Of a DNA stretch of 64,000 nucleotides, positions 6,017 to 26,742 are shown in pieces. The position numbers and the translations under genes are program-made. The notes beneath the pieces are model-generated. The model ran no database searches. It was given only the letters and a program-made list of their open reading frames with translations, and was not told where the DNA came from. Source of the stretch: Escherichia coli (GTDB taxonomy: Bacteria; Pseudomonadota; Gammaproteobacteria; Enterobacterales; Enterobacteriaceae); NCBI RefSeq assembly GCF_009931435.1, contig NZ_CP043414.1; one strand, 5' to 3'. Each line of letters opens with the position of its first letter. Within the stretch, counting starts at the first letter, position 1.

Positions 6017-8461
6017 ATGATGATTTTGAGTATTCTCGCTACGGTTGTCCTGCTCGGCGCGTTGTTCTATCACCGCGTGAGCTTATTTATCAGCAGTCTG
6101 ATTTTGCTCGCCTGGACAGCCGCCCTCGGCGTCGCTGGTCTGTGGTCGGCGTGGGTACTGGTGCCTCTGGCCATTATCCTCGTACCGTTTAACTTTGCGC
6201 CTATGCGTAAGTCGATGATTTCCGCACCGGTATTTCGCGGTTTCCGTAAGGTGATGCCGCCAATGTCGCGCACTGAAAAAGAAGCGATTGATGCAGGCAC
6301 TACCTGGTGGGAAGGCGACTTGTTCCAGGGTAAGCCGGACTGGAAAAAGCTGCATAACTATCCGCAGCCGCGCCTGACCGCTGAAGAGCAAGCGTTTCTC
6401 GACGGCCCGGTAGAAGAAGCCTGCCGGATGGCGAATGATTTCCAGATTACTCATGAGCTGGCGGATCTGCCGCCGGAGTTGTGGGCGTACCTTAAAGAGC
6501 ATCGCTTCTTCGCGATGATCATCAAAAAAGAGTACGGCGGGCTGGAGTTCTCGGCTTATGCCCAATCTCGTGTGCTGCAAAAACTCTCCGGCGTGAGCGG
6601 GATCCTGGCGATTACCGTCGGCGTGCCGAACTCATTAGGCCCGGGCGAGCTGCTGCAACATTACGGCACTGACGAGCAGAAAAATCACTATCTGCCGCGT
6701 CTGGCGCGTGGTCAGGAGATCCCTTGCTTTGCACTGACCAGCCCGGAAGCGGGTTCCGATGCGGGCGCGATTCCGGATACCGGGATTGTCTGCATGGGCG
6801 AGTGGCAGGGCCAGCAGGTGCTGGGGATGCGACTGACCTGGAACAAACGCTACATTACGCTCGCGCCAATTGCGACCGTGCTTGGGCTGGCGTTTAAACT
6901 TTCCGACCCGGAAAAACTGCTGGGTGGCGCAGAAGATTTAGGCATTACCTGTGCACTTATCCCGACCACCACGCCAGGCGTGGAAATTGGTCGTCGCCAC
7001 TTCCCGCTGAACGTACCGTTCCAGAACGGACCGACGCGAGGTAAAGATGTCTTCGTACCGATCGACTACATTATCGGCGGACCAAAAATGGCCGGGCAAG
7101 GCTGGCGGATGCTGGTGGAGTGTCTCTCCGTGGGGCGCGGCATCACCCTACCTTCCAACTCAACCGGCGGCGTGAAGTCGGTGGCGCTGGCAACGGGCGC
7201 GTATGCGCACATTCGCCGTCAGTTCAAAATCTCTATCGGTAAGATGGAAGGGATTGAAGAGCCGCTGGCGCGTATTGCCGGTAATGCCTACGTGATGGAT
7301 GCTGCGGCATCGCTGATTACCTACGGCATTATGCTCGGTGAAAAACCTGCCGTGCTGTCGGCTATCGTTAAGTATCACTGTACCCACCGTGGGCAGCAGT
7401 CGATTATTGATGCGATGGATATCACCGGGGGTAAAGGCATTATGCTCGGTCAGAGCAACTTCCTGGCACGAGCTTACCAGGGCGCACCGATTGCCATCAC
7501 CGTTGAAGGGGCCAACATTCTGACCCGCAGCATGATGATCTTCGGTCAGGGAGCGATTCGTTGCCATCCGTACGTGCTGGAAGAGATGGAAGCGGCGAAG
7601 AACAATGACGTAAACGCGTTCGATAAACTGCTGTTCAAACATATCGGTCACGTCGGTAGCAACAAAGTTCGCAGCTTCTGGCTGGGCCTGACGCGCGGTT
7701 TAACCAGCAGCACGCCAACCGGCGATGCCACTAAACGCTACTATCAGCACCTGAACCGCCTGAGCGCCAACCTCGCCCTGCTTTCTGATGTCTCGATGGC
7801 TGTGCTGGGCGGCAGCCTGAAACGTCGCGAGCGTATCTCGGCACGTCTGGGGGATATTTTAAGCCAGCTTTACCTCGCCTCTGCCGTTCTGAAGCGTTAT
7901 GACGACGAAGGCCGTAATGAAGCCGACCTGCCGCTGGTGCACTGGGGCGTACAGGATGCGCTGTATCAGGCAGAGCAGGCGATGGACGATTTACTGCAAA
8001 ACTTCCCGAACCGCGTGGTTGCCGGGCTTCTGAATGTGGTGATCTTCCCGACCGGACGTCATTATCTGGCACCGTCTGACAAGCTGGATCATAAGGTGGC
8101 GAAGATTTTACAAGTGCCGAACGCCACCCGTTCACGTATTGGTCGCGGTCAGTACCTGACCCCGAGCGAGCATAACCCGGTTGGTTTACTGGAAGAGGCG
8201 CTGGTGGATGTGATTGCCGCCGACCCAATTCATCAGCGGATCTGTAAAGAGCTGGGTAAAAACCTGCCGTTTACCCGTCTGGATGAACTGGCGCATAACG
8301 CGCTGGCGAAGGGGCTGATTGATAAAGATGAAGCCGCTATTCTTGTGAAAGCTGAAGAAAGCCGTCTGCGCAGTATTAATGTTGATGACTTTGATCCGGA
8401 AGAGCTGGCGACGAAGCCGGTAAAGTTGCCGGAGAAAGTGCGGAAAGTTGAAGCCGCATAA
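6017..8461 (+). CDS. fadE: Acyl-CoA dehydrogenase FadE
   Basis: ORF 5939..8461 trimmed to the ATG at 6017, giving 814 aa [14 protein letters not shown]...; N-terminal membrane segment plus acyl-CoA dehydrogenase body. Confidence 0.95.
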
Positions 8462-8469
8462 TTGAATAA

Positions 8470-8494
8470 CGGAGCCGAAAGGCTCCGTTTCTTT
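8470..8494. terminator. Hairpin plus T-run between convergent fadE and ivy
   Basis: cggagcc gaaa ggctccg followed by tttcttt. Confidence 0.5.
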
Positions 8495-8503
8495 ATCCGC
8501 TAA

Positions 8504-8977
8504 TTATTTAAAATTAAAGCCATCCGGATGGTTTTCCAGGCTGCCGGTCAACGCCGCGAACAGCACCGTTTTACCATCAATAGAAAGCGCATCGTTCACA
8601 TTCAACCAGGTGAGTTTCTCTTGCGACGTTTTCTCATCAATGGTCGAGAACAGCCCCGTCATCTGATTAGATTTCTCGGACCACATCACAGCGATACGTT
8701 GCGAGCCACAGTCATGCGGTTTGCACGCGCTCATCACCTGATACGTCTCATCTCCCAACGTTACGGTTTGTGCAGGGGTATAAGTCCCGCCTTTCATCAC
8801 CCAGGCAGGCAGCTTATGCCCTTGTACCATCTGATTAAATGCAGCTTTGGTGGTTTCGCCCTTTGCAAGGCTGCTAATGGTTAAATCATCCTGCGCCATT
8901 GCACTGGTGGCGATGACCAGAGCGGCGACTGTCGTTATTGCCTTAAACATCATTCCTCCCGAGCTTATCCTGCCCAT
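8504..8977 (-). CDS. ivy: Inhibitor of vertebrate lysozyme Ivy
   Basis: 157 aa with signal peptide and the CKPHDCG loop characteristic of Ivy. Confidence 0.9.
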   Translation of the reverse strand: MGRISSGGMMFKAITTVAALVIATSAMAQDDLTISSLAKGETTKAAFNQMVQGHKLPAWVMKGGTYTPAQTVTLGDETYQVMSACKPHDCGSQRIAVMWSEKSNQMTGLFSTIDEKTSQEKLTWLNVNDALSIDGKTVLFAALTGSLENHPDGFNFK

Positions 8978-9130
8978 GTTATTAACCTCCTAAAGCCTGG
9001 CGATAACACGATAATTTGCAAATCAGATATTTCCAATATCAGCATTTGTTATCAATTTATTCTGCGCTAAGGCAACTGCCTGATAAGGTGTTAGAGTTAT
9101 AAAACCCTTCACATAAAGGAGTTGTACACC

Positions 9131-10029: not shown

Positions 10030-11103
10030 TTACGAAAGCCCGCTCCCCGCAAGGACTGACGCCAGATACTTTCTGTCCATGGCTGCTTTTCGCATCTTAC
10101 GTCTTAACCCTGCCTTGAATACCTTATCATTCGTCAAAATATTAATTGCGATGTGCCGTATCCCTGAAAATAATTCTGCTGCATTTCCTCTTCTTATTTT
10201 GCAGTCGTCTTCATTCATTACCACGTCCAGACGCCAGTGCAGCTTATTCTCCACGTGCCAGTGGTTTCGGATTGCTGTGGCGAACTTCTCTGCGGTTAAA
10301 TCAGCAGAACTGATATAATATCTGACCGTCATTTCTGGCTCTTTCTTTTGTTCTGCTATTATTGACCGAAAGGAGACTGCCACGCATAATTTCTTCAGAC
10401 CTTTCCATTCAAACGTGAAATCAATAAGTTCATCAGGGACATCGCAAACAATGTGAAGACGGATTTCTTCTCTGCCGTGACTCTTTTCACTAATTGCGTA
10501 ACTGTCATGCTCTGGATTATTTAATTCTTTCAGCGGAAATTTTTCCTCGAAGCCTTTATTTAGCCGCCCCTGGTTTCCTTTTACAGCGAATAAATAATCA
10601 CCTCCCTGTTTTTGTATCTTCTCTGCAATATCTTTCTGGCAACCCATCGCATCAGTTGTGATGATTTTTCCTTTAATATCCAGCATGTTAAGAAGTTCTG
10701 GGATAGCTGTAATCTCATTGGATTTCTCATCCGTCTTGATCTGTCCGATGACCAGACTGTGCATTGTTGAGAACGCACTAATGACATGAATCGCTCCCCT
10801 GCGGCGACTCTTGTCATAAGAGTGCCGGAGCGTTTTTCCATCAATTGCAATGACGCCTTTATCATCTGAAGAATGGCAGTCACGCATCCAGTTAATAAAG
10901 CACTCGTGAAATTTTGCAGGACTGATACAGGATACAACTCTGGCAATGGTATCGTGAACAGGAATACCATTTTCAAAATCACCATATTGCTTCAAAAAAT
11001 CGAGATGTGTTTCCCCAAAATCCTCTATATCTTCCCAACCTTCTGCACCCGAAATAACGGCGCAAATAGTCAACAGTAGAATATCCGATAATTTATGTTC
11101 CAC
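10030..11103 (-). mobile_element. H-repeat-associated (ISAs1-family) transposase, the H-rpt element classically found at the distal end of E. coli Rhs elements
   Basis: 357 aa protein with DDE-type transposase features, strongly similar to the E. coli H-repeat proteins (YhhI/YbfD type); located directly downstream of the Rhs array. Confidence 0.8.
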
Positions 11104-11295: not shown

Positions 11296-11416
11296 CGTGA
11301 TCTTTCCCTGCCAGCCCCTCCGGGTTGACCTGCTCCGTCACCCGCAGAACCCTGCACAATATCCAGTCCCTTGCAGGTCATGTCACCCTGCCGCGCCGCC
11401 GGTTTTCCGCTCATGG
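11296..11416 (-). pseudogene. Vestigial rhs 5' end (start codon plus about 80 nt) fused to a short internal rhs fragment
   Basis: Bases 11340-11413 nearly match the first 70-plus nt of both rhs genes (compare 16134-16207 and 22269-22342), and are preceded by ccctccgggttgacctgctccgtcacccg, which also occurs inside rhs at about 15060. Confidence 0.55.
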
Positions 11417-11546
11417 TTTATTCCTTTTCTTTTACCTTACATGGCCATACAAATAGTTACCTATACTGTCTTTGAATATTGCCCTATCATTTAAAGCCCA
11501 CCTAATTTTTGCGACAGCAAAGGGATTTCTTTTTTAATCCAATCTA

Positions 11547-11951
11547 TCATTTCATTTTTTTAAAACATACGTTAATGCCATTCACACTTCCACATTCACC
11601 AAAAGCATCAAAATAAATTTCACATTTATTGTTGCCTTTCGAAATGATGCTAACCCCCCATCTTATATTGTTATATTTTTCTTTTCTGAAATACTTCATT
11701 TGCAATAAATCAATTATCTTACCCGCATAGAGATCGCTAAGTTCATTCACCACCACTTTATATCTGTATATTTCATTAAGACCTTCCTTGCTAAGCGGAA
11801 CTAACGTGGTAACATACGATGGAAGATTAACTACCTCTATCGTTTTCACGCTATCTATTCCACACAATTCATTCACTCGCCCCATCCCCAATACCGAACC
11901 AGAAAATAGAGACAATAAAACCATCAAATATTTCATCATAAAAAACCTCAC
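11547..11951 (-). CDS. Putative Rhs immunity protein (RhsI) for the rhs-A C-terminal toxin; has a signal peptide
   Basis: 134 aa, AT-rich, starts at the rhs-A stop codon; N-terminus MKYLMVLLSLFSGSVLG looks like a Sec signal peptide; position is that of an immunity gene. Confidence 0.55.
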   Translation of the reverse strand: MRFFMMKYLMVLLSLFSGSVLGMGRVNELCGIDSVKTIEVVNLPSYVTTLVPLSKEGLNEIYRYKVVVNELSDLYAGKIIDLLQMKYFRKEKYNNIRWGVSIISKGNNKCEIYFDAFGECGSVNGINVCFKKMK

Positions 11952-14900
11952 TATTCTGGCGTACCCGTTATTGTCATCGTCTGCAACGGTCCATCCACCC
12001 GATAAAAAGGCAGTCCACTATGAGCTCCTCTGACACACTCATCTAAAGTTTTCGCCGCACGCGATTCAATTATTGTAATAACCCTTGCCTCTTCTTTATT
12101 ATCATATTTCTTATCCGTCCGACTTAAAAGAGCCATGAAATTTTCTTTATCAAGAAGGTAATACTGTGCATGTGCAAACTCATGCCCCAAACCTAATGCA
12201 GGCGATTGTGATTTCGAGTTTAATTCAGTTGAACAAAATAAAGACGCTCTACTATTCCAATATATCGTCATATTATTCGAATTAAATCTACCATTGGTTC
12301 CTTCAATATACTCTATATTTATAGTTTCTTCAGAGCTTGATAAAAAATCTATAGCATCTTTCATTCGTGAATCTTTTTCTAAATACTTAACAGCCTGATT
12401 AAAATCACTTGGATCACCATTAACCTCGAATTTTAAACCCAAAGAATCTATAAACCGAACAGGGTTTAATGGATATTTATACAGATTCCATTCACCTCTT
12501 AGCCCGATTGGATCCTGCGTGATATACCTCCCCTGCAACGGGTCATAGTACCGGTGACGGTTGTAGTACAGCCCCGACTCCTCATCATACTGCTGCCCTG
12601 GCAGACGGTACGGCTGTTGCAGGTGCTCCGGGTTTTCCTCTCCCAGCAGGTTTCCCCACTCGTCATACTCCCCGCGCCACGCCGTTTCCCCTTCCGGGCT
12701 GATAAGCGCCTGCGGCAGCCCACGGTGGTCACAGTGGTAAAGATGAAGTTTCCTCTCCGGGATGTATTCTTCCTCCATCTGGTTGTTCATCTGTTCCGCC
12801 GTCAGCCCGCACTGCGCAAGCCATGCTTCACTCTCCGCACTCACCGCACCCGCGCGCAGTTCCCGCTCCAGCCTCCCCAGCATCACCGACAGCTCCGCCG
12901 GGAGCGTCACACCCGTGTCCTCCTGCAACACCTCCGCCAGGCTACGGTGCCGCGCCTTCGCCTGTTCGCCATTCTCTGTTTCGATTCTCAGGAGCGGCGT
13001 GAAGCTTCCCGGCTGATAAATCGTCTGGATACGTGTGGTGCCGGTCTGTACCGTCGTCAGCCTGTCACCGTCCCACCCGTACCATGTCTCCTCCGGTTTA
13101 CGCGACAGCGACATCCATCCCGTCAGGTCACGCTCCCGCCGCCACACCCGTTTTCCCGTCCTGCGGCCCAGCGGGTCGTAAAGGTAGCGGCTCTCCACCT
13201 GCGGCTCGCCGTGCTGTATCCGCGTGTAGAACACCAGACGGTGCTGGCTGTCGTAATGGTAGTGGTGGGTGCGCTCGTCGTGCATCCGTATCACCCCTTC
13301 CGGGATACGGTCCGTCTTCTCCGCCAGCCTGCCGTATTCATCGTGGCGGTAGACATAGTGCGCATCTTCCGCGATGCGGTTATCCGGCCACGCCGTGAAG
13401 GTGCTGTCCGGGTGCAGTTCCGGGTCCGGCAGCCGGTTTCCTGCCGGGTCCGTCGCATACGGGATATCAATGTCCAGGTTCGCTGCCGTGGTGTGGACGC
13501 CCGTCAGCCTTCCCGTGTCGCTGTAACGGTACTCCCGGCTCTCCTGCGGGCCGCTGATACGCACCAGTTGCCCGTTATCATTCCACGTATACTCACGGTC
13601 AAGCTGCGGAAGGTTCAGGTGCCTGCTCCGGAGCTGGCCTGTGAGGGTGTATGTGCTGGTCAGTTCATATGCGGCATTACTGCCTGCCATGCTGCCGAAG
13701 CTGCGCACCGTCTCACGGTGCAGCCTGTCCCGCGTGTACTCGACCAGCGGCGTTCCGCCCAGCTTCATCCCCGCAAGATAACCGCTGCCATACGTCAGCC
13801 ACTCCACCGGCGGCAGACCGTCCGGCTCCTGACGGGTCGCCAGCCCCTGTTCGCTGTACGCGTGCCCCGTCTCATGCTCCCACAGCATCTCCCCCGTCTC
13901 CGGGTTCTCCACCGTCTGCCGTTCGCCCGTCAGGCGGCCCTTATCGTCATAGCCGTAGTGGACCGCCACACGGTGGCCTTCACTGGTATGGCTGAGGGTG
14001 GTTAACCACCCGTGCTCATCATACTGCCACTGCTCTGCCGCTTCGCCGTTCACCGTCCGGTGCGTGATGCGGTCCGACGCATCGTAGTGCCAGAGGGTGA
14101 TAAGTCCCTCGTCTTCACTGCGGACAAGCTGCCCTGTGGCGCTGTACCGGTAACGCTGTGTCCGTCCGTCAAAGCCGCGCTGCTCCGTCAGGCGGTCCAC
14201 CGGGTCATACAGGAACGTGGACTGGCTGCCGTTCTCATTAGTCAGCGTGGTGATGCGCCCGGCGGCGTCATACCCCATGCTGCGCGTCAGACCGCCCTGC
14301 GTGGTGCTGATAGCTTTACCCCACGCATCATACTGTGTCTCACTGCGGCTGCCGTTCGGGGCAATGATAGCGGTGAGGTCGCCTGCGGCGCTGTACTCAT
14401 AACGGGTTTCACGCCCCTGCACATCCTTCTGACTGACCAGTTGACCACGCGGGTTATAACTGCTGTAAGTGCTGATGCCTTCTTCCCGGTGAACCGCCGT
14501 CCTCTGCCCGTACCGGTCGTACTCATACCGTGTCGTGTACCCCGAGCAGTCCGTGAAGGCCAGCAGTTGACCGTAGCGGCTCCATGCCATCTGTTTTGTA
14601 CTGCCCGTCGCATCCTGTATCCCTGTCGGCAGCTCACTCGCCGGGTCATCATAGCTGTACCGCGTCGTCTCACCGCTGCGCGAGGTCTCCGCCGCCAGCC
14701 TTCCCTTCTCATCATACTCCCGGCTGCTGCGAAGCCCGTCCGGGTACGTCACTGACGTCACCTGCCGCTGGCTGTTGTAGCCATACCGCACCGTCCTGCC
14801 GTCCGGCCCCGTCACCGCCGTCACCGCGCCCGACGCCATATGCAGGCTGTACTCCGTCCGCCGCCCCGCCGCATCCGTCTGCGCCTTCAGCCTCCCCGCC

Positions 14901-16207
14901 GCATCATACTCGCTGCGGGTGATGCTCCCGTCCGCATGCTCCTTCTTCACCACCCGCTTCAGGCCACCCTCGCCTTCCGTGTACAGCACCTCCCGCCTGT
15001 TCAGGCTGTCCGTGATGGTCACACGGTCCTGCCCGTACTCAAAGCGGTAGGCCAGCCCCTCCGGGTTGACCTGCTCCGTCACCCGACCGGTATCATCATA
15101 CCGGTAGCGGCTCTCCGGCCTCCCCGCATAATGGTGCGCCACCATCCGCCCGGCGTGCTCCGCATCATAAGTAAACCCGCGCACCTGCGTCCCGCTGCGG
15201 TCATACACCGCCAGCAACTCACCGCTGGCCGTGTACGTGTAGCGCGCCAGCGGCGCAGTCGGCTGTTCATCCGGGTATGCCGGGTCGTGTGTCAGCCACA
15301 CCGCCTCCAGCCGGATACCGTTATCGGCACCGTATTCTGTACCGGCGGGCAGCGTGTCGGGGAAAACCTGAGAAGAGGAAACAGAACGGGGACCGGCAGG
15401 GGAAGATAAAGACGTGGCGCGCTGTTTACGGCAGGCTTCCGCCCGCTGCGCCTGCGTGCTCAGCAACAGGTGAAAACGACGGCCCGCACCGTCCGTCCCC
15501 CCCGTCACCGCGCCCGCCACGTCACCCTCCGCTGCCCGGTGAAAGGCCAGCGTCCGACCAAAGCCATCCACCACGCCCGTCAGCACCCGGTATGCGGGCG
15601 GTTCCGGCGGCAGCACCTCGTCCGCCCCCGGCACCCGCTCCGGCCAGCTGAGTATCCACCACGGCCCCTGAAGGCTGTTTGTCGCCAGGTACACATGCGG
15701 ACTCAGGCGAACATCTTCCGGCAGCACCTGCCAGAGCGCGCTTAGCGGCTGCGAACTGTGCTGCTCCGCCCCCCCGCCCCGCGCCAGCCAGAACGACTCG
15801 CTGCGGCTGTAGCTTATCTCGCCGGGAAACAGCGGCTCAAAGTGAATGCTCCTGCCGCCGTTGTCGTTGAGTATCAGTTCCCGCTCATGAACCTGTAAGC
15901 GGATATCGAAGGGCGCTTTCCAGCCGGGGCCGAACACGCCCACCGGCGCGGGCGTCCTGGTCCGGTAACTGCTGTAAGCGCGGGAAAGAATAAACGGCAG
16001 CGGGCCGGGCAGTGCCAGGTCCGTCTCGCCCGGCAGCACCTTCGCACCCAGCACCGGGTTCACCGGGTTAGCATAGGTAATCCCTCCCGGACACACCGAG
16101 CAGGCCACTCCCGTCGGCGCACCTATCAGCACCCCTGCTGAACCCTGCACAATATCCAGTCCCTTGCGGGTCATGTCGCCCTGCCGCGCCGCCGGTTTTC
16201 CGCTCAT
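11951..16207 (-). CDS. Rhs-family polymorphic toxin (distal copy) with PAAR-like N-terminus, YD-repeat shell and a C-terminal domain carrying an HExxH motif
   Basis: 1418 aa; N-terminal [16 protein letters not shown]...VACSVCPGG, many YD repeats, DPIGL demarcation motif, then a unique roughly 160 aa tail containing [10 protein letters not shown]. Confidence 0.9.
12502..16207 (-). repeat. Rhs core repeat, copy A (near-identical to 18628..22342; apparently perfect over about 12502..14060)
   Basis: Identical antisense ORFs at a fixed 6126 bp offset (12554..14005 and 18680..20131, etc.) and direct line-by-line comparison. Confidence 0.85.
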
Positions 16208-16330
16208 GGTTTATTCCTCTTCCTCTGAATAAACTTATTTTTGATGCACTAATGATTTTCAAAAGAGATTTATATTTAACGACAATTCAGCACTTTTAAT
16301 GTAAAAGATCCCCGGCTGAATGATATTCAC

Positions 16331-17299
16331 TCATTGTTTGTTATCAGAAAGTGTTTTATACAGCGGCACATATCCCACGTCTTCCACAAGACTTTGCCCC
16401 TGAGGGCTTAAAAACCAGTCCACTAGTTTTTGTGTTTCCGGTGTCGGCTTTTCGCGGGTGACCATGTAGGCATCCACCACATACGGATAAGTACCGTTGC
16501 GGATATTCTCCACCGTTGGTGCAATACCATTTATTGCCAGCAGCTTAAGATTTGGGCTTATATCCTTATTCATCTGTGTGACATAATAGCGGAAGGTGTA
16601 ACCAATTGAAGGCTGCGTATTCCGGTAGGCAATTACTTTGGTTAACACTCCATTCATAAGGCTTACTTCTGTAGATGTTCTGGCGGGTAGCATCGGTGTC
16701 TCTTTCATCACCTTTGCCAGCATCACCGTCTGGCTACCGGAATCTTCCGGACGCTGCCAGACCTGAATGCGCTCATCACTGCCACCAACCTGACTCCAGC
16801 GGGTGATTTTACCGCTGAAGATATCCCGAACCTGCTGTTCAGTAAAAGAACTGACCGGATTACTGGCGTTAACGATAAAAACAAAGGCTTCGTGGGCGAA
16901 GGGGGTATAAACCAGTTTCACCCCGGCATCGGCAGCCCGTTGTTTTTGTCCTGCGGAAGGCTGGGCAACAAAAATAACATCGGCCTGGCGCTTTATGAGA
17001 TCATTATAGGCTTCTGGTGTACGAGTCGGATACATATAATTCAAACCCGGATCTTGATGGTTATCCCCGGGGATCAAATATCGGTAAGCTGAAGCATACA
17101 GTGGATATAACGCGGTTGCACCACATACCCGGGGCCATTTATTCGAGTTATCAGTGTAGCGTAAAGTGGGTTCTCCTCGTATATTGGTTTTCTCCCAACT
17201 CACTGTTTCTTTTACGCTGTTATCGCCCCCGCCGTCTACACATCCTGACATTAATACCGTCATATAAAATAATACTGGTAACAGGCCCACCCTACGCAT
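16331..17299 (-). CDS. PstS-like (phosphate-binding-protein fold) lipoprotein; start uncertain, ORF extends to 17365
   Basis: 344 aa ORF; probable start MRRVGLLPVLFYMTVLMSGC with lipobox; AT-rich; lies between the two Rhs modules. Confidence 0.6.
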   Translation of the reverse strand: MRRVGLLPVLFYMTVLMSGCVDGGGDNSVKETVSWEKTNIRGEPTLRYTDNSNKWPRVCGATALYPLYASAYRYLIPGDNHQDPGLNYMYPTRTPEAYNDLIKRQADVIFVAQPSAGQKQRAADAGVKLVYTPFAHEAFVFIVNASNPVSSFTEQQVRDIFSGKITRWSQVGGSDERIQVWQRPEDSGSQTVMLAKVMKETPMLPARTSTEVSLMNGVLTKVIAYRNTQPSIGYTFRYYVTQMNKDISPNLKLLAINGIAPTVENIRNGTYPYVVDAYMVTREKPTPETQKLVDWFLSPQGQSLVEDVGYVPLYKTLSDNKQ

Positions 17300-17627
17300 A
17301 CAATGATTTAATAAATACGCCATATACCTCACTCTAAAATATTGATTATATAAATACATATGCATAATTATATTTACATCAAATTCTGAATGAACAATTT
17401 AAATTTAGAGAAAGTGAAATTTAATTTTTCGATACTTCCGCATACATATTCCCCTCGCTAAAAAATCATCATTCCACAATCAATCATTAATTACAACTCA
17501 ATATACATCATTTAACTTTCATTAAACTCGCAATTTATTATTACATTGTAGCCATTATGAACTGTCATCACGCACACACTCTACATACACATTAGAAACA
17601 ATATAACCCCATGAGCCATCCTCCGTT

Positions 17628-18074
17628 TCAATACTTAGTGCAGCGTGTCTTAAGGAAATTAGAAGCCACAACATCAATCTTTTCTTTTAAGACTAAATCA
17701 TCCACATAATCACAAGACAAATAGAAGTCATTACCATCGGCCATTATAAATATCCTCATAGGTAAAGATTTATCATTATCAACATGAGCATTCGTAATAA
17801 TCCAATAATAAGGAAATCTAACATTTTTTGTAGGAATACCCAATAAATCATAAGCTTTATTATTATATTCTATCGCTCCCTTAACAAACGTTGGTTTGAC
17901 CTCCTTACCAATAATGCGATGCGACGTATATTCTTCCTTCTCAGCAAACGATTGCATTAATGCCCATATAGGTTTATTTGCCAGCTCACCGTGATGAAAA
18001 ATCCGATAAAAATACACTCCTAAAAAAAATATTAAGCCTAAGCAAACCAATACCATGAGGCAGTTCTTACTCAT
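17628..18074 (-). CDS. Putative Rhs immunity protein (RhsI) for the rhs-B C-terminal toxin; N-terminal membrane anchor
   Basis: 148 aa, AT-rich, overlaps the rhs-B stop by 4 nt; N-terminal hydrophobic helix [18 protein letters not shown]. Confidence 0.55.
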
Positions 18075-21000
18075 TGATTAAAATCCGTAAAATTAGAAGG
18101 AACAGGGCCATTCTCAGGTGAAAACAATGGAGATGTATTTGATACTCGTGATGCTATCATTTCTACAGTAGCAGGAAGATACATTGGCATTCCATTATCA
18201 CCACCTAGCGGATCAGTTGAAGTTAAAATTTCATTTATTGAATCTACTGAGACTCCCGCATGCAACATTGCCTCAATAACCATTGTTGCACAATTGTGCG
18301 TAAAATAGTTATAGTCACTTCTATCTACTTTATATTTTTCATCAATGTACTTAATCATTGCTTTCTCTTGTTCTGGCGTGGTTTTAATTGTATATATCCT
18401 CGTGCTTCTACGTTGTGCTTGTTCAGTTAAATAAGCTATGACACTCCCTCCACGTGGGGTAGCGGTTCCATAGCTATATACCCCTTTTCCAGTAAATGCC
18501 ATCGCAGAATGCCCTAATGGATTACCACTCGTGGGTCCCCCAGCAAAAATAAGGGTATCCAAACCAAGTGGATCTATATTTATAGTTGGATTCCACGGAT
18601 ATTTATAAAGATTCCATCCCCCCGCAAGCCCGATTGGATCCTGCGTGATATACCTCCCCTGCAACGGGTCATAGTACCGGTGACGGTTGTAGTACAGCCC
18701 CGACTCCTCATCATACTGCTGCCCTGGCAGACGGTACGGCTGTTGCAGGTGCTCCGGGTTTTCCTCTCCCAGCAGGTTTCCCCACTCGTCATACTCCCCG
18801 CGCCACGCCGTTTCCCCTTCCGGGCTGATAAGCGCCTGCGGCAGCCCACGGTGGTCACAGTGGTAAAGATGAAGTTTCCTCTCCGGGATGTATTCTTCCT
18901 CCATCTGGTTGTTCATCTGTTCCGCCGTCAGCCCGCACTGCGCAAGCCATGCTTCACTCTCCGCACTCACCGCACCCGCGCGCAGTTCCCGCTCCAGCCT
19001 CCCCAGCATCACCGACAGCTCCGCCGGGAGCGTCACACCCGTGTCCTCCTGCAACACCTCCGCCAGGCTACGGTGCCGCGCCTTCGCCTGTTCGCCATTC
19101 TCTGTTTCGATTCTCAGGAGCGGCGTGAAGCTTCCCGGCTGATAAATCGTCTGGATACGTGTGGTGCCGGTCTGTACCGTCGTCAGCCTGTCACCGTCCC
19201 ACCCGTACCATGTCTCCTCCGGTTTACGCGACAGCGACATCCATCCCGTCAGGTCACGCTCCCGCCGCCACACCCGTTTTCCCGTCCTGCGGCCCAGCGG
19301 GTCGTAAAGGTAGCGGCTCTCCACCTGCGGCTCGCCGTGCTGTATCCGCGTGTAGAACACCAGACGGTGCTGGCTGTCGTAATGGTAGTGGTGGGTGCGC
19401 TCGTCGTGCATCCGTATCACCCCTTCCGGGATACGGTCCGTCTTCTCCGCCAGCCTGCCGTATTCATCGTGGCGGTAGACATAGTGCGCATCTTCCGCGA
19501 TGCGGTTATCCGGCCACGCCGTGAAGGTGCTGTCCGGGTGCAGTTCCGGGTCCGGCAGCCGGTTTCCTGCCGGGTCCGTCGCATACGGGATATCAATGTC
19601 CAGGTTCGCTGCCGTGGTGTGGACGCCCGTCAGCCTTCCCGTGTCGCTGTAACGGTACTCCCGGCTCTCCTGCGGGCCGCTGATACGCACCAGTTGCCCG
19701 TTATCATTCCACGTATACTCACGGTCAAGCTGCGGAAGGTTCAGGTGCCTGCTCCGGAGCTGGCCTGTGAGGGTGTATGTGCTGGTCAGTTCATATGCGG
19801 CATTACTGCCTGCCATGCTGCCGAAGCTGCGCACCGTCTCACGGTGCAGCCTGTCCCGCGTGTACTCGACCAGCGGCGTTCCGCCCAGCTTCATCCCCGC
19901 AAGATAACCGCTGCCATACGTCAGCCACTCCACCGGCGGCAGACCGTCCGGCTCCTGACGGGTCGCCAGCCCCTGTTCGCTGTACGCGTGCCCCGTCTCA
20001 TGCTCCCACAGCATCTCCCCCGTCTCCGGGTTCTCCACCGTCTGCCGTTCGCCCGTCAGGCGGCCCTTATCGTCATAGCCGTAGTGGACCGCCACACGGT
20101 GGCCTTCACTGGTATGGCTGAGGGTGGTTAACCACCCGTGCTCATCATACTGCCACTGCTCTGCCGCTTCGCCGTTCACCGTCCGGTGCGTGATGCGGTC
20201 CGACGTATCGTAGTGCCAGAGGGTGATAAGCCCCTCGTCTTCACTGCGGACAAGCTGCCCTGCGGCGCTGTACCGGTAACGCTGTGTCCTGCCATCAAAG
20301 CCGCGCTGCTCCGTCAGGCGGTCCAGCACATCATAGGTAAACTCACTCCGGCTGCCGTTCTCGTTGGTCAGCACGGTGATGCGCCCGGCGGCGTCATACC
20401 CCATGCTGCGCGTCAGCCCGCCCTGCGTGGTGCTGACGGCCTTTCCCCACGCATCATACTGTGTCTCACTGCGGCTGCCGTCCGGGGCAATGATAGCGGT
20501 GAGGTCGCCTGCGGCGCTGTACTCATAACGGGTTTCACGCCCCTGCACATCCTTCTGACTGACCAGTTGACCACGCGGGTTATAACTGCTGTAAGTGCTG
20601 ATGCCTTCTTCCCGGTGAACCGCCGTCCTCTGCCCGTACCGGTCGTACTCATACCGTGTCGTGTACCCCGAGCAGTCCGTGAAGGCCAGCAGTTGACCGT
20701 AGCGGCTCCATGCCATCTGTTTTGTACTGCCCGTCGCATCCTGTATCCCTGTCGGCAGCTCACTCGCCGGGTCATCATAGCTGTACCGCGTCGTCTCACC
20801 GCTGCGTGAGGTCTCCGCCGCCAGCCTTCCCTTCTCGTCATACTCCCGGCTGCTGCGCAGCCCGTCCGGGTACGTCACTGACGTCACCTGCCGCTGGCTG
20901 TTGTAGCCATACCGCACCGTCCTGCCGTCCGGCCCCGTCACCGCCGTCACCGCGCCCGACGCCATATGTATCCGGTACTCCGTCCGCCGTCCCGCCGCAT

Positions 21001-22342
21001 CCGTCTGCGCCTTCAGCCTCCCCGCCTCATCATACCCGCTGCGGGTGATGCTCCCGTCCGCATGCTCCTTCTTCACCACACGCTTCAGGCCACCCTCGCC
21101 CTCCGTGTACAGCACCTCCCGCCTGTTCAGGCTGTCCGTGATGGTCACACGGTCCTGCCCGTACTCAAAGCGGTAGTCCAGTCCCTCCGGGTTGACCTGC
21201 TCCGTCACCCGCCCGGTATCATCATACCGGTAGCGGCTCTCCGGCCTCCCCGCATAATGGTGCGCCACCATCCGCCCGGCGTGCTCCGCATCATAAGTAA
21301 ACCCGCGCACCTGCGTCCCGCTGCGGTCATACACCGCCAGCAACTCACCGCTGGCCGTGTACGTGTAGCGCGCCAGCGGCGCAGTCGGCTGTTCATCCGG
21401 GTATGCCGGGTCGTGTGTCAGCCACACCGCCTCCAGACGGATACCGTTATCGGCACCGTATTCTGTACCGGCGGGCAGCGTGTCGGGGAAAACCTGAGAA
21501 GAGGAAACAGAACGGGGACCGGCAGGGGAAGATAAAGACGTGGCGCGCTGTTTACGGAAGGCTTCCGCCCGCTGCGCCTGCGTGCTCAGCAACAGGTGAA
21601 AACGACGGCCCGCACCGTCCGTCACCCCCGTCACCGCGCCCGCCACGTCACCCTCTGCCACCCGGTGGAAAGTCATCGTCCGACCAAAGCCATCCACCAC
21701 GCCCGTCAGTACCCGGTATGCGGGTGGCTCCGGCGGCAGCACCTCGTCCACTTCCGGCACCCGCTCCGGCCAGCCGAGCACCAGCCACTGCCCGGTTGTG
21801 CTGACAGCCATCATATAGGTGTGTGGACTCAGGCGGACCGCTTCCGGCAGCGCCCGCCAGAACCGCGCAAGCGGGTGTCCTTTATGCTGTTTCAGCACCC
21901 CGCCCCGCGCCAGCCAGAACGACTCGCTGCGGCTGTAGCTTATCTCGCCGGGAAACAGGGGTTCAAAGTGGATGCTCCGGCCACCGCTGTCGTTAAGTAT
22001 CAGTTCACGCTCACAAATCTGTAAGCGGATGTCGGAGGGGGCTTTCCAGCCGGGGCCGAATATCCCCACCGGGGCTGGCGTCTTCGTCCGGTAACTGCTG
22101 TAGGCGCGGAAAAGGATGAACGGCAACGGGCCGGATAGTGCCAGGTCGGTTTCAGCAGGCAGTACCTTCGCTCCCAGCAGCGGGTTTACCGGATTGCCAT
22201 ATTTCGGCGTGGCTTCCCCTGTGGGACACACCGAGCAGGCAACCCCCGTCGGCGCACCTATCAGCACCCCTGCTGAACCCTGCACAATATCCAGTCCCTT
22301 GCGGGTCATGTCACCCTGCCGCGCCGCCGGTTTTCCGCCCAT
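18071..22342 (-). CDS. Rhs-family polymorphic toxin (vgrG-proximal copy) with PAAR-like N-terminus and a C-terminal domain with a His...Cys pattern (possible permuted papain-like hydrolase)
   Basis: 1423 aa; same architecture as the other rhs; after DPIGL the tail contains GHSAMAF...YSYG...[12 protein letters not shown]. Confidence 0.9.
18628..22342 (-). repeat. Rhs core repeat, copy B (near-identical to 12502..16207)
   Basis: See copy A; N-terminal 250 codons are more diverged, the central and 3' core is almost identical. Confidence 0.85.
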
Positions 22343-22417
22343 GAATCAATTCCTTCTGCTTTTAATATGGTTCATCTGGCCACTGCACCAGTTCCGTTTT
22401 AATTTTTTGCACCTGAC

Positions 22418-24559
22418 TCAAAATTGCCGCATATCCGGCATTCCGGGGGGTAAATCTTTCGGCACAGGCGCATCCGGCACAGGTTGTGTGGCACCACAGT
22501 TCCAGTTAATCACCGGCGCATCACCGTTCACATCCGACTCCCCTTCCAGATGAATGTGCGTACCATTAAGAAATATGCTTCCGTCCTTCGTCAGCACCAG
22601 CCTTGCCTTACCACAGCAGAGTTCAAGATGCTCACCGGCAGAATAAACTGCTGTTTGTCCGGTGTTTTCCTTCATCGTCTTGCCCACCGAGAAGGTGACG
22701 TTATTCCCTACATTGACGCTGTAGCCCATTCCCACCATCAGTGATTTATGCAGCCCTACCTGTGAGGACTGCAACAACGCCACCGAGGTATTCATAATGC
22801 CGCCTACCGTCGTCTGGTAAGCCACGCCCACCGTCAGCGCACGAATGATCCCCACCTTTTCAACCTGGTTTGATCCCACTTTGATAATCTGGTTACTGCC
22901 CACCGTTTCCACCTGGTTGACACCAACCGTCTGTATCTGATTAACGCCAATGTTCTGGATCTGGTTATTGGTAACGGTGATCGCCTGGTTGTTACCTATT
23001 TTTTCGGCATGGTTGTTTATCACATCAGTGGTGCGGTTATTCAGCACCTCGGTGTTCATGTTCTTCTGCGCGTGGATGTAGACCTGTTCTTTCCCTGTCG
23101 CATCGTCAAACTTCAGTTCATTAAACCCGCTGCCCTTATAGGTTTTCGAACGAATGGTCATCTGCGTCTTTGTTCCCGGCAGGCTGCCGGGGGTGCGGTT
23201 TTCCTGGTGGTAGGTACGCCCCATAATAATCGGCTGGTCCGGATCGCCGTTGAGGAAGTCCACAATGACCTCCTGACCCACACGCGGTATCGCCAGGTTA
23301 CCAAACCCGGTGCCTGCCCACGCCTGTGCCACACGGATCCAGCATGAACTGTCCTGGTTTGACGGGTTATAACGGTCCCAGTTAAATTTCACCCGCACGC
23401 GGCCATGTTCATCACAGAAGATTTCTTCTCCTGCCGGTCCCGTCACGACGGCGCTCTGCGGGCCATCCACCAGCGGTTTCAGCAACGGCTGTGGCCGCCA
23501 TGTTCTGTCTGCCGGTATTACCGCAAAGTGGTTATTCAGCGTGGTACCTGAACCCCTGCGTCCCGGCACCGCCTGCGGCTGCTCGCCGTGCAGTTCACTT
23601 GCCACCACCTGCCATTCCCGGTTCAGGTTCGCCTGCGGATGCCCCGTCAGCGCAATTCGCCGTCCCGGCCATATCTCCGGAGAACGGCTTGTTCCGCGCG
23701 CCACTTCTGCGTTGTTTCGCCAGCCATCCATCTGCCAGCGGGCAAAGTTCTGCCCGTGGGCACCCTTGAAACGTCCGGGGTAGTCATACACTTCATACTG
23801 TGTGCGCTGGTAATCCTGGTACTGGCCTTCCTGATCAAAACGCCCTGCCCAGCCGGGTCGTTTAAAGGTGTAGTCCTTGGTCACCACGGAAGAAGGGCGG
23901 ATTTGTGCGCTGTAGCGGAACTGGCTGATGCATAGGGTGCTCACCTCGGTACGGGTGTTCGGATTCCAGGGGATCTCAAAGGACTCCGGCAGATAACGCA
24001 CGGTGTCGCACAGGACCAGGCTCTGGTCGGTACTTTTTTGCGCGTGCTCCTCATAAAAGAAGATGCCTTCCTCCGCCGCCATCCGGCACAGGAAATCGTA
24101 ATCGGTTTCGCCGTACTGGACACAAAACTCACGGGAAGGATGCGGCTCGCTGAACAGCGGACTCCACTCGGTCACCCCGTTTTCTTTCAGGATCGTCGCG
24201 AGTATGCTTTCGATGTCCTCATTCTGGAAGATACGGAAGTTCTGGCGCAGCCCTGTGCGCCACAGCGGTGGGCATACCTTCATGCTGTACAGCATCTGGT
24301 TTTTGTCGTTCTCCCCCAGTTCAAACCAGGTCACCACACCTTTCACCCGGCGCTGTACGTCATCGCCCTGCCATATCGTCAGGTAGGCCATTTTGTCCAG
24401 CACCTGCGCAAATTCAAGGGAGAGAAACTGCTGGCTGACCAGAGAGAGATCGAGGGAAAAGAGCGAAGAGAGTGACTGGTTCAGATGAAAGGAGACCACC
24501 GCAAACGCGTCCGGTGGCAGGCCGTCCACTTCCAGCGTGAAACGTAATCCGGTTGACAT
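22418..24559 (-). CDS. vgrG: T6SS spike protein VgrG (TssI)
   Basis: 713 aa; gp27/gp5-like VgrG body with a short Pro-rich C-terminal tail; 75 nt upstream of rhs-B. Confidence 0.95.
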   Translation of the reverse strand: MSTGLRFTLEVDGLPPDAFAVVSFHLNQSLSSLFSLDLSLVSQQFLSLEFAQVLDKMAYLTIWQGDDVQRRVKGVVTWFELGENDKNQMLYSMKVCPPLWRTGLRQNFRIFQNEDIESILATILKENGVTEWSPLFSEPHPSREFCVQYGETDYDFLCRMAAEEGIFFYEEHAQKSTDQSLVLCDTVRYLPESFEIPWNPNTRTEVSTLCISQFRYSAQIRPSSVVTKDYTFKRPGWAGRFDQEGQYQDYQRTQYEVYDYPGRFKGAHGQNFARWQMDGWRNNAEVARGTSRSPEIWPGRRIALTGHPQANLNREWQVVASELHGEQPQAVPGRRGSGTTLNNHFAVIPADRTWRPQPLLKPLVDGPQSAVVTGPAGEEIFCDEHGRVRVKFNWDRYNPSNQDSSCWIRVAQAWAGTGFGNLAIPRVGQEVIVDFLNGDPDQPIIMGRTYHQENRTPGSLPGTKTQMTIRSKTYKGSGFNELKFDDATGKEQVYIHAQKNMNTEVLNNRTTDVINNHAEKIGNNQAITVTNNQIQNIGVNQIQTVGVNQVETVGSNQIIKVGSNQVEKVGIIRALTVGVAYQTTVGGIMNTSVALLQSSQVGLHKSLMVGMGYSVNVGNNVTFSVGKTMKENTGQTAVYSAGEHLELCCGKARLVLTKDGSIFLNGTHIHLEGESDVNGDAPVINWNCGATQPVPDAPVPKDLPPGMPDMRQF

Positions 24560-24721
24560 AGCAACCTCCGGGTTTAAGGAAAAACAGACAGTTCGCTGTT
24601 AAAGCGGCTGTAACAGTACAGTGTTACGCTTGCGTTCAGGCACGCTACCGCCGAAGTTTCCGGCATCCGCCATCTCCCGTGAACGTAACCCCTTACTGAC
24701 AACCTTTCTTTTTACGGCGTA

Positions 24722-24760
24722 ATACAAAAACAGCATCCGGCCTGATAGCCGGATGCTGTT
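24722..24760 (-). terminator. Rho-independent terminator downstream of hcp, before vgrG
   Basis: Perfect inverted repeat cagcatccggc / gccggatgctg; minus strand reads hairpin then TTTTTG. Confidence 0.6.
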
Positions 24761-24768
24761 GGCTTAAC

Positions 24769-25287
24769 TTATGCTTCCAGCGGTGCGCGCCAGTCGTCGG
24801 CACCGGAGGTGCCAGATTTGACGTGTTCCCACTCAATCTTGCGGTAGGCCAGTGAAACTTCGAGCAACTGGGTGAACTCGCGTTTCGCCGGGTCCTGGCA
24901 ATGCGGCATATGCAGTTTCATATCGACAATCGTCGAATCAGTCAGGCGGGTGGTGAAATAATGCTCCTGTTTGCCTTCCACAGATGTACGCCACCAGTGC
25001 AGTTCAGTGGTTGGCAGCATTTCACCGGAGGCCAGTGCGTTGTACATCAGCGGAACCGCTTTGTTCAGCGCCACGGTAAAAATGAACGGCTTGTGAGCAC
25101 GCTGACCCGCAGGCTGACCGGACTGAGGATCGGTCGGGACAGTAACGTTATGCAGGAATTCCTGCACCAGCATCTCGTCTTCGTGCCCCTGCACATAGAT
25201 GTTGCCGACAGAATCAGCGGTAAATGCACCTGCAGTAATATTTCCCTGGGTCTGACCAGTGATGGAGATATAACACGGTGTTGGCAT
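24769..25287 (-). CDS. hcp: T6SS tube protein Hcp (TssD), copy 1
   Basis: 172 aa Hcp-family protein; divergently arranged from tssB. Confidence 0.9.
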   Translation of the reverse strand: MPTPCYISITGQTQGNITAGAFTADSVGNIYVQGHEDEMLVQEFLHNVTVPTDPQSGQPAGQRAHKPFIFTVALNKAVPLMYNALASGEMLPTTELHWWRTSVEGKQEHYFTTRLTDSTIVDMKLHMPHCQDPAKREFTQLLEVSLAYRKIEWEHVKSGTSGADDWRAPLEA

Positions 25288-25584
25288 TTGTAAACTCCTT
25301 GTTAACGTGGTTAATTACTACTTACAATGACCTGCCGTTAATCCCAGACAGGCAGATGCAGCTCACTTCACGGAACCGCATCATTTTTCAGTATTTTTTA
25401 CATACAAACCGAGCTAGAATTTACGGTTGTCGTAAAAACTATTTTTAAAATCATTAAATCTCTTATTCAGCAATAACTTAATAATATATATCTGGATAAC
25501 TATACCCAACTGTTCAAAGTCCGTATTGCCTCCATAAAATGGCCAAAGCTGAATCATGAATAAATATTGTATTTATCCTTTCTG

Positions 25585-25603
25585 AATTATCATTTTGATA
25601 ATT
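25585..25603. promoter_or_regulatory. Candidate Fur box: perfect palindrome in the hcp-tssB divergent intergenic region
   Basis: aattatca ttt tgataatt is a perfect inverted repeat built from GATAAT-like hexamers in a very AT-rich 700 bp intergenic region. Confidence 0.4.
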
Positions 25604-25982
25604 TTTGAGATATTCCTTAAAAATACCCACTTACTCAATCACAAAACAAATATATAAACAAGCAATCATTAGATTAGCTTATGTTTAATGAAATTATTAT
25701 ATACTTCAATAAGATACATAAAAACTCTATATTTAAATTATTGCCATAATACACCTGACGCGAATTGCACAGGTTCACACAATCTATTTAACGCTTGCAG
25801 AATACCCCTCTTTACGATCGATAAAAAGTCCTTTTCTTATTTATTTTGAAGCGTAAAATGCGGGGTGATGAAGGAGTGGTGATTTTATTTTCACCGCCAT
25901 CAAGGCGGCATTTCCGATATTTTTTGCGGTACAAATATGCTGTGTTCATGGCCTGTACGAGATAACATGACGGATCACTTTT

Positions 25983-26483
25983 ATGAGCAAAAAATTTGAA
26001 GGCAGCGTCGCGCCTCGCGAGCGTATTAATATATCGTATGTCCCAAAAACAGATGGCCAGACGGCTGAAGTGGAACTTCCGCTTAACATGCTCGTTGTCG
26101 GCGATACCGGAAATACGCAGGAAACATCCTCACTGGATGAACGTCAGGCAGTTTCCGTTAACAAGCACAATTTCGGTGCAGTGATGGCTGAAGCAGCCAT
26201 TGGCCTCAATTTTACCGTCCCCGCCACGCTGAAGGGAAGCACAACGGACGATGAACTGAATGTGGCGCTGAATATCAAGTCACTGGATGATTTTTCACCA
26301 GATAGCGTGGCCCGGCAGGTTCCGGAAGTGAATAAATTGCTGGAATTACGTGAAGCACTGACTGCACTGAAGGGGCCGATGGGTAACCTTCCGGCATTCC
26401 GTACCCAGCTCCAGGCATTGCTGGAAAATGAAGAGTCCCGCGAGCAGTTGCTCAAAGAAATCGGCCAGGTGAGCAATAAATAA
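25983..26483 (+). CDS. tssB: T6SS contractile sheath small subunit TssB (VipA)
   Basis: 166 aa; typical TssB sequence; first gene of the plus-strand operon. Confidence 0.9.
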   Translation: MSKKFEGSVAPRERINISYVPKTDGQTAEVELPLNMLVVGDTGNTQETSSLDERQAVSVNKHNFGAVMAEAAIGLNFTVPATLKGSTTDDELNVALNIKSLDDFSPDSVARQVPEVNKLLELREALTALKGPMGNLPAFRTQLQALLENEESREQLLKEIGQVSNK

Positions 26484-26517
26484 CCACCACTATTTCATTA
26501 AACAGGGTTATCCAGGC

Positions 26518-26742
26518 ATGACGGCACACAAAAATATCTCCGGGACATACCACCTCTCTGTTGCAGACATTCTGCAGGTGGTTTACCAGGTATGTTTCAG
26601 CCCGTCCGTTGAAATCAACCAGGATGGTGTGGCTGCGCTGATTACAACACTGGATCGCCGTATCAGTGATCTATTGGATGAGATTATCCATTTTTGTGAG
26701 TTTCAGCAGAGCGCGTCGCACTGGCAGCGCGTACTTCACTGA
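26518..26742 (+). pseudogene. TssC-like N-terminal fragment (74 codons) between tssB and tssC
   Basis: Translation ...NQDGVAALITTLDRRISDLLDEIIHFCEFQQSASHWQRV parallels TssC residues ...NKLAVDSMIADIDERISRQMDVIIHAPAFQQVESFWRSL; fills an unusual 310 nt tssB-tssC gap. Confidence 0.45.

Follow-up and report, generated by a model that had tools for sequence, protein, structure and literature searches.

The stretch of Escherichia coli DNA analysed here (64,000 nucleotides of contig NZ_CP043414.1, assembly GCF_009931435.1; the whole stretch is called the window) carries two complete rhs genes in tandem, rhs1 and rhs2, at a type VI secretion system (T6SS) locus. The best explanation overall, to which we give a probability of roughly 0.8, is that the two genes form a two-module T6SS Rhs array, in which the cores exchange patches of sequence and whole cassettes are swapped at the edge between core and toxin tip. 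Rhs genes owe their name to recombination between their cores. In this array, comparison of closely related genomes indicates recurrent gene conversion between the rhs1 and rhs2 cores in both directions, because nearly every core difference between sister genomes matches the allele of the paralogue. The parts of the two modules are as follows.

18071..22342, minus strand: rhs1, full-length Rhs effector of 1423 amino acids (NCBIfam RHS_core equivalog).
11951..16207, minus strand: rhs2, full-length Rhs effector of 1418 amino acids with its own Shine-Dalgarno sequence (NCBIfam RHS_core equivalog).
18627..20205, minus strand: rhs1 copy of the perfect-identity tract, 1579 bp (alignment).
12501..14079, minus strand: rhs2 copy of the same tract, 1579 bp (alignment), abutting the DPIGL boundary.
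18071..18626, minus strand: tip 1, the AT-rich toxin domain of rhs1, predicted to be of permuted-papain type.
11951..12500, minus strand: tip 2, the toxin domain of rhs2, HExxH, of dsORF-h1 type (HEFAH motif in the translation).
17628..18074, minus strand: imm1, candidate immunity protein of 148 amino acids (translation), overlapping the rhs1 stop by 4 nt.
11547..11939, minus strand: imm2, candidate immunity protein, the 'RHS element protein dsORF-h1' (named from RefSeq annotation of homologous loci).

A first-pass annotation of this DNA had described a core of about 3.7 kb, near-identical between the two genes and perfectly identical for about 1.5 kb just upstream of the DPIGL codons. Pairwise alignment of the two genes gave an identity not lower than had been judged: by BLASTN, positions 12471-16208 align with 18597-22343 over 3752 columns at 95.5% identity (E=0), and the mosaic was confirmed. 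The longest perfect run measures 1579 bp (12501-14079 = 18627-20205) and ends with the last codon of DPIGL; under a uniform divergence of about 4.5%, the chance of 1579 nt without a difference would be about e^-72 by our own arithmetic. The '6.1 kb direct repeat' of the same annotation has to be corrected, the repeated DNA being 3.75 kb and 6126 bp being the period, i.e. the start-to-start spacing of rhs1 and rhs2. Homology between the copies begins about 8 nt upstream of the ATG, and before that point identity is at chance level. Over the 5' ~690 nt (230 codons) the two genes are 70-94% identical per 100-nt window, and after nt ~690 the cores are 97-100% identical, apart from one block of 82-91% identity that spans gene nt ~1860-2140. 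That the first 250 codons and the tips differ had been noted correctly, this further divergent block had not. The nucleotide sequences of tip 1 and tip 2 agree at chance level only. The corresponding protein identities are 81% for residues 1-250, 97.7% for residues 251-1261 and 15% for the tips.

The direct evidence for exchange comes from genomes carrying the same array. In what follows, '1' denotes the rhs1 allele and '2' the rhs2 allele, as found in CP057959.1. Between the window and CP057959.1, 63 of the 66 differences fall inside the two cores, and the cores account for 36.6% of the length (p=4e-24); expressed as rates, there are 8.4 differences per kb in the cores and 0.23 per kb outside. 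All except two of these 63 core differences (61/63) are the allele of the paralogue. The two window copies share one mosaic, which reads 2 (gene nt 2491-2658), 1 (2745-2766), 2 (2910-3063), 1 (3321-3453) and 2 (3584-3590), and they are identical to each other there because both carry it. In a third genome, the draft contig JAXUWE010000023, the copies are homogenised elsewhere (nt 906-1536), and conversion has run in the opposite direction in a 20-site patch made up of 2745-2766 and 3321-3453. The states of this patch in the three genomes are (1,1), (1,2) and (2,2), while their flanks differ by only 3-4 single-nucleotide polymorphisms (SNPs). Altogether, five genomes display five different mosaics, and the perfect 1579-bp tract is specific to this strain, the sister genomes having differences inside it. 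These counts, and the comparison with the same locus in related genomes generally, support the earlier suggestion that the mosaic arose by repeated homologous recombination.

Two segments, the first 690 nt and the block 1861-2137, keep their copy-specific sequence in each of the three genomes and, being the most diverged parts of the genes, are probably barriers to conversion. The comparisons show that the GC-rich cores have swapped sequence repeatedly, in short patches and in both directions, and that in this strain conversion has erased all differences over the last 1579 bp before the tip. Conversion ends where homology ends, at the DPIGL codons on the 3' side and, on the other, at the diverged 5' ~690 nt and the internal block.

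The same homology edge at DPIGL is the place where whole tip-immunity cassettes swap between lineages, with displaced tips left behind as orphans. CP057686.1 offers the clearest example. It has one rhs at this locus, with an N-terminus of the rhs2 kind (96-98% identical to rhs2) and a core about 9% diverged from that of the window (91 differences in 19600-18635). Its tip 1, imm1 and spacer differ from those of the window at 6 of 1316 nt (99.5% identity), the change-over falling no more than 9 nt from the DPIGL boundary. Downstream follow an ISAs1 element, an orphan tip 2 shortened by ~35 codons at its start, dsORF-h1 in intact form, a second ISAs1 and yafV. Read from its sequence, CP057686.1 is a cassette swap with C-terminal displacement, and a 99.5% identical tip1-imm1 pair on a core ~9% diverged bears out the swapping of toxin and immunity cassettes that the first-pass annotation had expected. 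The dsORF-h1 module is found in other positions as well: AMSCJX02 has it in the vgrG-proximal place and LZSFT34 at the rhsE/pptA locus, in both cases beside another full-length rhs.

As for the origin of the pair, the comparison set consisted of 5426 RefSeq complete E. coli genomes, with CP057959.1 outside that set. E. coli 2013C-4282 has a single vgrG-linked rhs, which matches the first 509 nt of rhs2 at 99.6% identity, and the first 860 nt of rhs1 are at most 92.7% identical to any genome of the set. Region 16231-18626 has no megablast match in these 5426 genomes, nor was the whole array found there. The hcp and vgrG genes of the window are 98-100% identical to those of 2013C-4282 right up to the rhs1 ATG. 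Because of the 5'-end identities, the absence of 16231-18626 and the hcp-vgrG identity up to the rhs1 start, rhs2 looks like the resident gene and the rhs1 module like the imported one; rhs1 would have come by recombination together with imm1 and a PstS-like gene, landing between vgrG and rhs2. The N-termini fall in two classes (window 22193-22342 and 16058-16207), type 1 being that of rhs1 and type 2 that of rhs2, and single vgrG-linked rhs genes carry type 2. The idea that the N-terminal type is fixed by the position in the array was rejected, as AMSCJX02 has type 2 at both positions.

It must be noted that several observations weigh against this interpretation or limit it. The mosaic shared by the window copies (2,1,2,1,2 against CP057959.1) calls for several conversion events or for heteroduplex repair in patches, unless the state of CP057959.1 is not the ancestral one. 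In the draft L006 (VTMG01000052.1), rhs1 nt 2893-2999 has about 20 sites with alleles of neither copy, so that either a third donor was involved, be it another rhs locus or another strain, or the draft contig is chimeric. Allele phasing in repeats hinges on assembly quality: the drafts L006 and L007 may be chimeric, and only the contigs of the window genome (5.13 Mb) and CP057959.1 (5.21 Mb) are known to be of chromosome scale. The direction and the mechanism of the original insertion are inferred. Moreover, the vgrG-rhs-PstS-like-rhs layout also exists in Escherichia albertii, where the proximal tip is another one; the array may therefore be of old date and not a recent import. Finally, imm2 of the window is a frameshifted allele: relative to the common allele WP_032183280.1, a run of eight A has become seven (A8 to A7, at ~11555-11561) and the last 21 residues (NEMIDWIKKEIPLLSQKLGGL) are replaced by MK. 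The change is common to CP057959.1 and JAXUWE010000023. With some 20 residues lost from imm2, full function of module 2 is uncertain.

One alternative reading ascribes a purpose to the conversion. According to it the array is a toxin-switching device, in which conversion keeps the 3' cores identical as a landing pad for tips, including incoming ones. We regard this as unlikely; if it were true, tips would reassort with the two N-terminal blocks at high frequency, giving subpopulations that fire different combinations from a single VgrG.

It is also conceivable, with a rather small chance in our judgement, that the mosaic stems mainly from exchange with other rhs loci or with the DNA of other strains, and not with the tandem partner. 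Potential donors are plentiful, E. coli genomes holding a median of 6 matching places for this region, and both allele types of several patches circulate in the rhs genes of other strains (L001, L002). The draft patch with alleles of neither copy fits such donors, and tip cassettes clearly do move between lineages. However, an outside source sits poorly with the finding that 61 of 63 core differences are the allele of the neighbouring copy at the same locus, and with the occurrence of all three patch states in genomes only 3-4 flank SNPs apart.

Gene conversion between the cores also has to be set against a simpler history, in which a single rhs was duplicated in tandem not long ago, one tip was then replaced and no exchange is going on between the copies; the identical tract would then merely be DNA that has not yet diverged. 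The head-to-tail arrangement of the copies, the 3.75 kb they have in common and the start of homology at the ribosome-binding site are all as such a duplication would leave them. Yet divergence in the 5' 690 nt (70-94% identity) and at nt 1860-2140 (82-91%) far exceeds that of the remaining sequence, the two 5' ends do not share a nearest relative (99.6% for rhs2, at most 92.7% for rhs1), and the identical tract is strain-specific, the sister genomes being other mosaics. We think this history very improbable.

The weakest alternative is an assembly or polishing artefact, the second copy, or its perfect identity, having been made by mis-assembly or cross-mapped reads, a doubt that the first-pass annotation had itself raised. 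The order rhs-imm1-PstS-like-rhs is found in CP057959.1 (a 5.2-Mb chromosome, 99.68% identical over 20.4 kb) and in JAXUWE010000023 (a 45.6-kb draft contig), and the same unique middle is present in at least 8 short-read or metagenome contigs, from isolates as well as metagenomes, which stop inside the cores. One MEGAHIT contig built with k=111 ends exactly 111 nt into an identical run at each end (18737 and 15321), as a real repeat would make it do in a de Bruijn graph. Since independent assemblies share this layout, the tandem duplication is not an artefact. Assemblers easily err in repeats of 3.7 kb, the one alternating mosaic shared by both window copies could be mimicked by a mixed-read consensus, and the k=111 evidence proves identity for the first ~111 nt only and not for the whole tract; but with tips, N-termini and junctions that differ between the copies, the layout in at least 10 independent assemblies, short-read contigs breaking exactly where the copies turn identical, and CP057959.1 patches differing at up to 27 sites in 170 nt, where short reads would be expected to map uniquely, we give an artefact hardly any credence.

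Returning to the two-module array with exchanging cores, its proteins belong to a well-defined family. The RHS_core equivalog (NCBIfam NF041261, 1261 positions, cutoff 2000 bits) covers both proteins end to end (1-1261/1261), with 2549 bits for rhs1 and 2603 bits for rhs2, in keeping with the previous description of both genes as full length. Pfam scans, which were run on protein parts, found DUF6531 and 12 RHS_repeat matches, 10 of them with E<=0.001; TIGR01643 matched 7 stretches, and the NCBIfam scan detected the Rhs_assc_core domain. In both proteins the autocleavage motif PxxxxDPIGL, at which cleavage is predicted from the sequence, stands at the core/toxin junction. The layout of rhs1 is thus a PAAR-like piece (residues 1-50), a DUF6531 plug, a YD-repeat shell, PxxxxDPIGL and tip 1. 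The closest solved structure is Pseudomonas aeruginosa Tse5 (8cp6; E=2e-125), and the shells 7q97 and 8qjd are also homologous.

The N-termini had previously been called PAAR-like. This holds in the sense in which the term is used for Tse5: the deposited Tse5 shell chain begins with PVNP, corresponding to residue 51 of rhs1, and in Tse5 the 47 residues before PVNP are a separate 'PAAR-like' fragment, Tse5-NT, required for secretion (PMC10684867). It does not hold in the sense of a full PAAR domain, as Pfam PAAR_motif has no match in either Rhs protein, even at E<=10. Residues 1-29 show a weak alignment, confined to the final PAAR repeat of SalCis10 (E=0.014) and VCA0105 (4jiv, E=2.5), and the N-terminal piece of about 50 residues carries one PAAR motif and, as in Tse5, no transmembrane segments. 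By homology to the family, each rhs would encode a YD-repeat shell enclosing a C-terminal toxin that is cut off at PxxxxDPIGL, the protein would mount on the VgrG spike via its short PAAR-like N-terminal piece, and each rhs would be paired with its own exported immunity protein, encoded directly 3'.

Neither tip had a significant match when searched by sequence against the PDB, and tip 1 was identified by fold search only. Tip 1 is predicted to be a toxin domain of the permuted-papain (TseH/YiiX/PPPDE-like) type, a cysteine hydrolase or acyltransferase. It matches Pfam Lnb_N/DUF4105 (E=4.8e-7) and, weakly, PPPDE, the TseH match not being significant (E=0.076); a cysteine within an HNC motif is invariant. 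By its predicted fold tip 1 is papain-like, with a conserved catalytic cysteine. Homologues are few: only five clusters in a large protein database, Citrobacter orphan tips among them. The nearest characterised relatives, Vibrio cholerae TseH (PDB 6v98) and E. coli YiiX (2if6), permuted-papain / NlpC-P60-like cysteine hydrolases, are 11-14% identical to tip 1, and TseH is a free effector, whereas tip 1 sits inside an Rhs shell. Tip 2 has the zincin motif HEFAH (HExxH) and a weak match to Peptidase_M91 (E=0.0019, over 62 residues only); with dsORF-h1, it is present as a module in 1016 of the 5426 complete genomes.

Both candidate immunity open reading frames (ORFs) are in the expected place, imm1 overlapping the rhs1 stop and imm2 starting 9 nt past the rhs2 stop. 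Tip 1 is always directly followed by imm1, in at least 10 assemblies; imm1 found no family match in the NCBIfam scan. The translations show an N-terminal transmembrane anchor in imm1 and a signal peptide in imm2. As both immunity proteins carry export signals and the N-terminal pieces of the Rhs proteins lack transmembrane segments, the sequences suggest that both toxins act in the cell envelope. The Tse5 toxin likewise acts from the periplasmic side (PMC10684867). In a survey most Rhs toxins were predicted to be cytoplasmic, thus envelope action would be a minority case (bioRxiv 10.1101/2024.02.26.582050).

The surroundings of the array are those of an E. coli T6SS island, and the flanks of the window are 97-99.7% identical to E. 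coli genomes. Both Rhs proteins are exact matches of GenBank QHQ00991.1 and QHQ00989.1, from a 5.13-Mb E. coli contig. Our own profile calls, with RefSeq annotation of homologous loci, place the locus at the hcp-vgrG end of the island, which is bounded by aspV and yafV. Coming from the fadE, ivy and yafV side, the order is ISAs1 transposase, third-rhs stub, dsORF-h1, rhs2, PstS-like gene, imm1 and rhs1; beyond rhs1 come vgrG and hcp, then tssB through tssM on the other strand, then tRNA-Asp. Since hcp and tssB through tssM are all inside the window, the linkage of rhs to the T6SS is seen directly. On the strand shared with vgrG, rhs1 starts 75 nt and rhs2 6.2 kb after vgrG. The cores have 62-68% guanine plus cytosine (GC) and the tips, immunity genes and spacers 32-40%, the usual Rhs signature. 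The neighbouring features are the following.

24769..25287, minus strand: hcp, T6SS tube protein TssD (NCBIfam TIGR03344, E=1.7e-61).
22418..24559, minus strand: vgrG, T6SS spike (NCBIfam TIGR03361, E=3e-189), with its stop codon 75 nt upstream of the rhs1 ATG.
16331..17323, minus strand: PstS-like (PBP_like_2) lipoprotein gene (Pfam PBP_like_2, E=6e-32).
11310..11434, minus strand: third-rhs stub, with ~20 nt of upstream sequence, the first 25 codons and 35 nt of core.
10030..11103, minus strand: ISAs1-family (H-repeat) transposase gene (NCBIfam NF033564, E=2e-124), closing the array on the yafV side.

The tRNA-Asp gene at the far end of the T6SS island lies at 48542-48618 and is presumably aspV. 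A second tRNA-Asp (56763-56839) and a tRNA-Ala/tRNA-Ile pair (60192-60386) stand in a part with few long ORFs, which resembles a ribosomal RNA operon.

The ORF of the PstS-like gene extends to 17365, with a likely start at M15 and the lipobox LMSGC, and 123 nt separate the gene from the rhs2 ATG downstream. A scan for promoters and terminators found no convincing terminator between the two rhs genes. It gave a weak terminator-like match inside the PstS-like gene (16888-16901) and a promoter-like match over its end, upstream of rhs2 (16320-16347), neither of which shows function. In the T6SS locus of E. albertii (L017, 10007-10996), a 96% identical PstS-like gene occupies the same position, after a different tip and immunity gene, and a Salmonella array (L018) has two PstS-like genes (5279-6217 and 8082-8987), 84 nt and about 610 nt upstream of rhs 5' fragments. 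A Rhs-specific accessory or immunity role was largely rejected: in four of four contexts outside Rhs arrays the homologues adjoin glpD, three of them between glgP and glpD, and the E. albertii copy following another tip and immunity gene is further against it. The PstS-like gene is probably a passenger. Its recurrence just ahead of rhs starts in arrays of E. coli, E. albertii and Salmonella suggests, as a minor possibility, a functional partner of the Rhs modules.

In the third-rhs stub, the first 25 codons, preceded by ~20 nt of upstream DNA, are fused to 35 nt of core (gene nt 1123-1157), after which ISAs1 begins. This suggests that the array was once longer. In the Salmonella array, 'mini-rhs' genes (L018, 6301-6930 and 9600-9981) consist of the first ~80 rhs codons fused to a tip (M91-like; Ntox34), the whole shell being deleted, and resemble the window stub. 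A larger loss is found in E. coli 2020CK-00188 (L003; flanks 98.8-99.7% identical), where an 18.8-kb deletion joins window position 13390 to 32170 (L003, 16277-16292). The 3' rhs2 core is fused to tagH, and the 5' part of rhs2, the PstS-like gene, imm1, rhs1, vgrG, hcp and tssB-G are lost. Such a deletion would inactivate the T6SS, with tip 2 and dsORF-h1 kept. The repeat had been proposed as a substrate for deletion or duplication, making the locus variable. Isolates do vary, the variants seen involving ISAs1 elements or other deletions. The crossover part of the proposal found no support: a deletion product of rhs1 x rhs2 crossover (type-1 N-terminus with tip 2) was not found, no RefSeq genome having a type-1 5' end above 92.7%, and no duplication product was found among the variants seen.

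In most of the E. coli genomes sampled the locus spans 10-12 kb, which points to a single rhs; arrays with long spacers get split, so these data give no frequency of pairs. Tandem full-length pairs do recur, in strain 154, AMSCJX02 and LZSFT34. Tandem Rhs arrays and Rhs recombination are already known, thus the novelty of this locus, which has one rare toxin module, is modest, and current understanding is not overturned by it. Its value is that of a natural example of Rhs repertoire change, with patchwise conversion in near-identical genomes and a cassette swap at DPxGL in a second lineage. The textbook model of Rhs diversification becomes measurable in one lineage, in terms of conversion tract lengths, barriers and rates. 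The analysis also flags a rare TseH-like Rhs toxin with its candidate immunity gene, absent from the 5426 complete genomes, and the results point to envelope-acting toxins in the short-N-terminus Rhs proteins of this locus.

It is useful to compare the array with known systems. One is 'pathogenic island 2' of E. coli O22:H8 strain 154 (bioRxiv 10.1101/2024.03.05.583533; NZ_CP067426.1), which occupies the same chromosomal locus (vgrG ... yafV) and also has two tandem full-length RHS core genes and no EagR chaperone. Its distal gene combines an M91-like tip with a type-2 N-terminus (94%), and its proximal gene has a type-1-like N-terminus (89%). In contrast to the window, the preprint gives an ADP-ribosyltransferase as the proximal tip, the genes are spaced ~9.7 kb apart, and two ISEc1 copies and small ORFs, with no PstS-like gene, lie between the genes.

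The array shares with the E. coli Rhs elements (RhsA-H; NF041261) the GC-rich core of ~1260 residues, the AT-rich variable tips, the small downstream ORF, the presence of ISAs1/H-repeat and the vgr/hcp linkage, and its distal immunity ORF is the named dsORF-h1. For these elements a C-terminal displacement model was proposed (Jackson et al. 2009; PMC2935791), in which a new tip takes over at the core/tip junction while the old one persists downstream, as in CP057686.1. The main-plus-orphan arrangement, with 3' fragments devoid of the N-terminal delivery region, is present in CP057686.1 and not in the window, where rhs2 is full length. Unlike in displacement arrays, the downstream unit of the window is a complete gene with its own start and N-terminus, and the only fragment is a 5' stub. 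In addition, the sister genomes studied here display patchwise gene conversion between two cores; a term search of PMC2935791 met 'gene conversion' in the reference list only, and neither 'concerted' nor 'homogeni-' anywhere.

In architecture the proteins resemble Tse5 (PDB 8cp6; PMC10684867), with a PAAR-like piece of ~47-50 residues, a DUF6531 plug from PVNP, a YD shell and a C-terminal aspartyl-protease plug. The Tse5-CT toxin differs in forming pores and is unrelated to the tips found here, and cleavage at the N-terminal site is putative for the E. coli proteins.

A main/orphan rhs pair of Salmonella Typhimurium was reportedly described by Koskiniemi et al. in 2014. As in our array, the common core of the adjacent Salmonella Typhimurium units is a substrate of homologous recombination, which changes the expressed toxin (PMC7043789). 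The Salmonella orphan is without the N-terminal delivery part, whereas here both genes are complete, and both toxins may be deployable without rearrangement.

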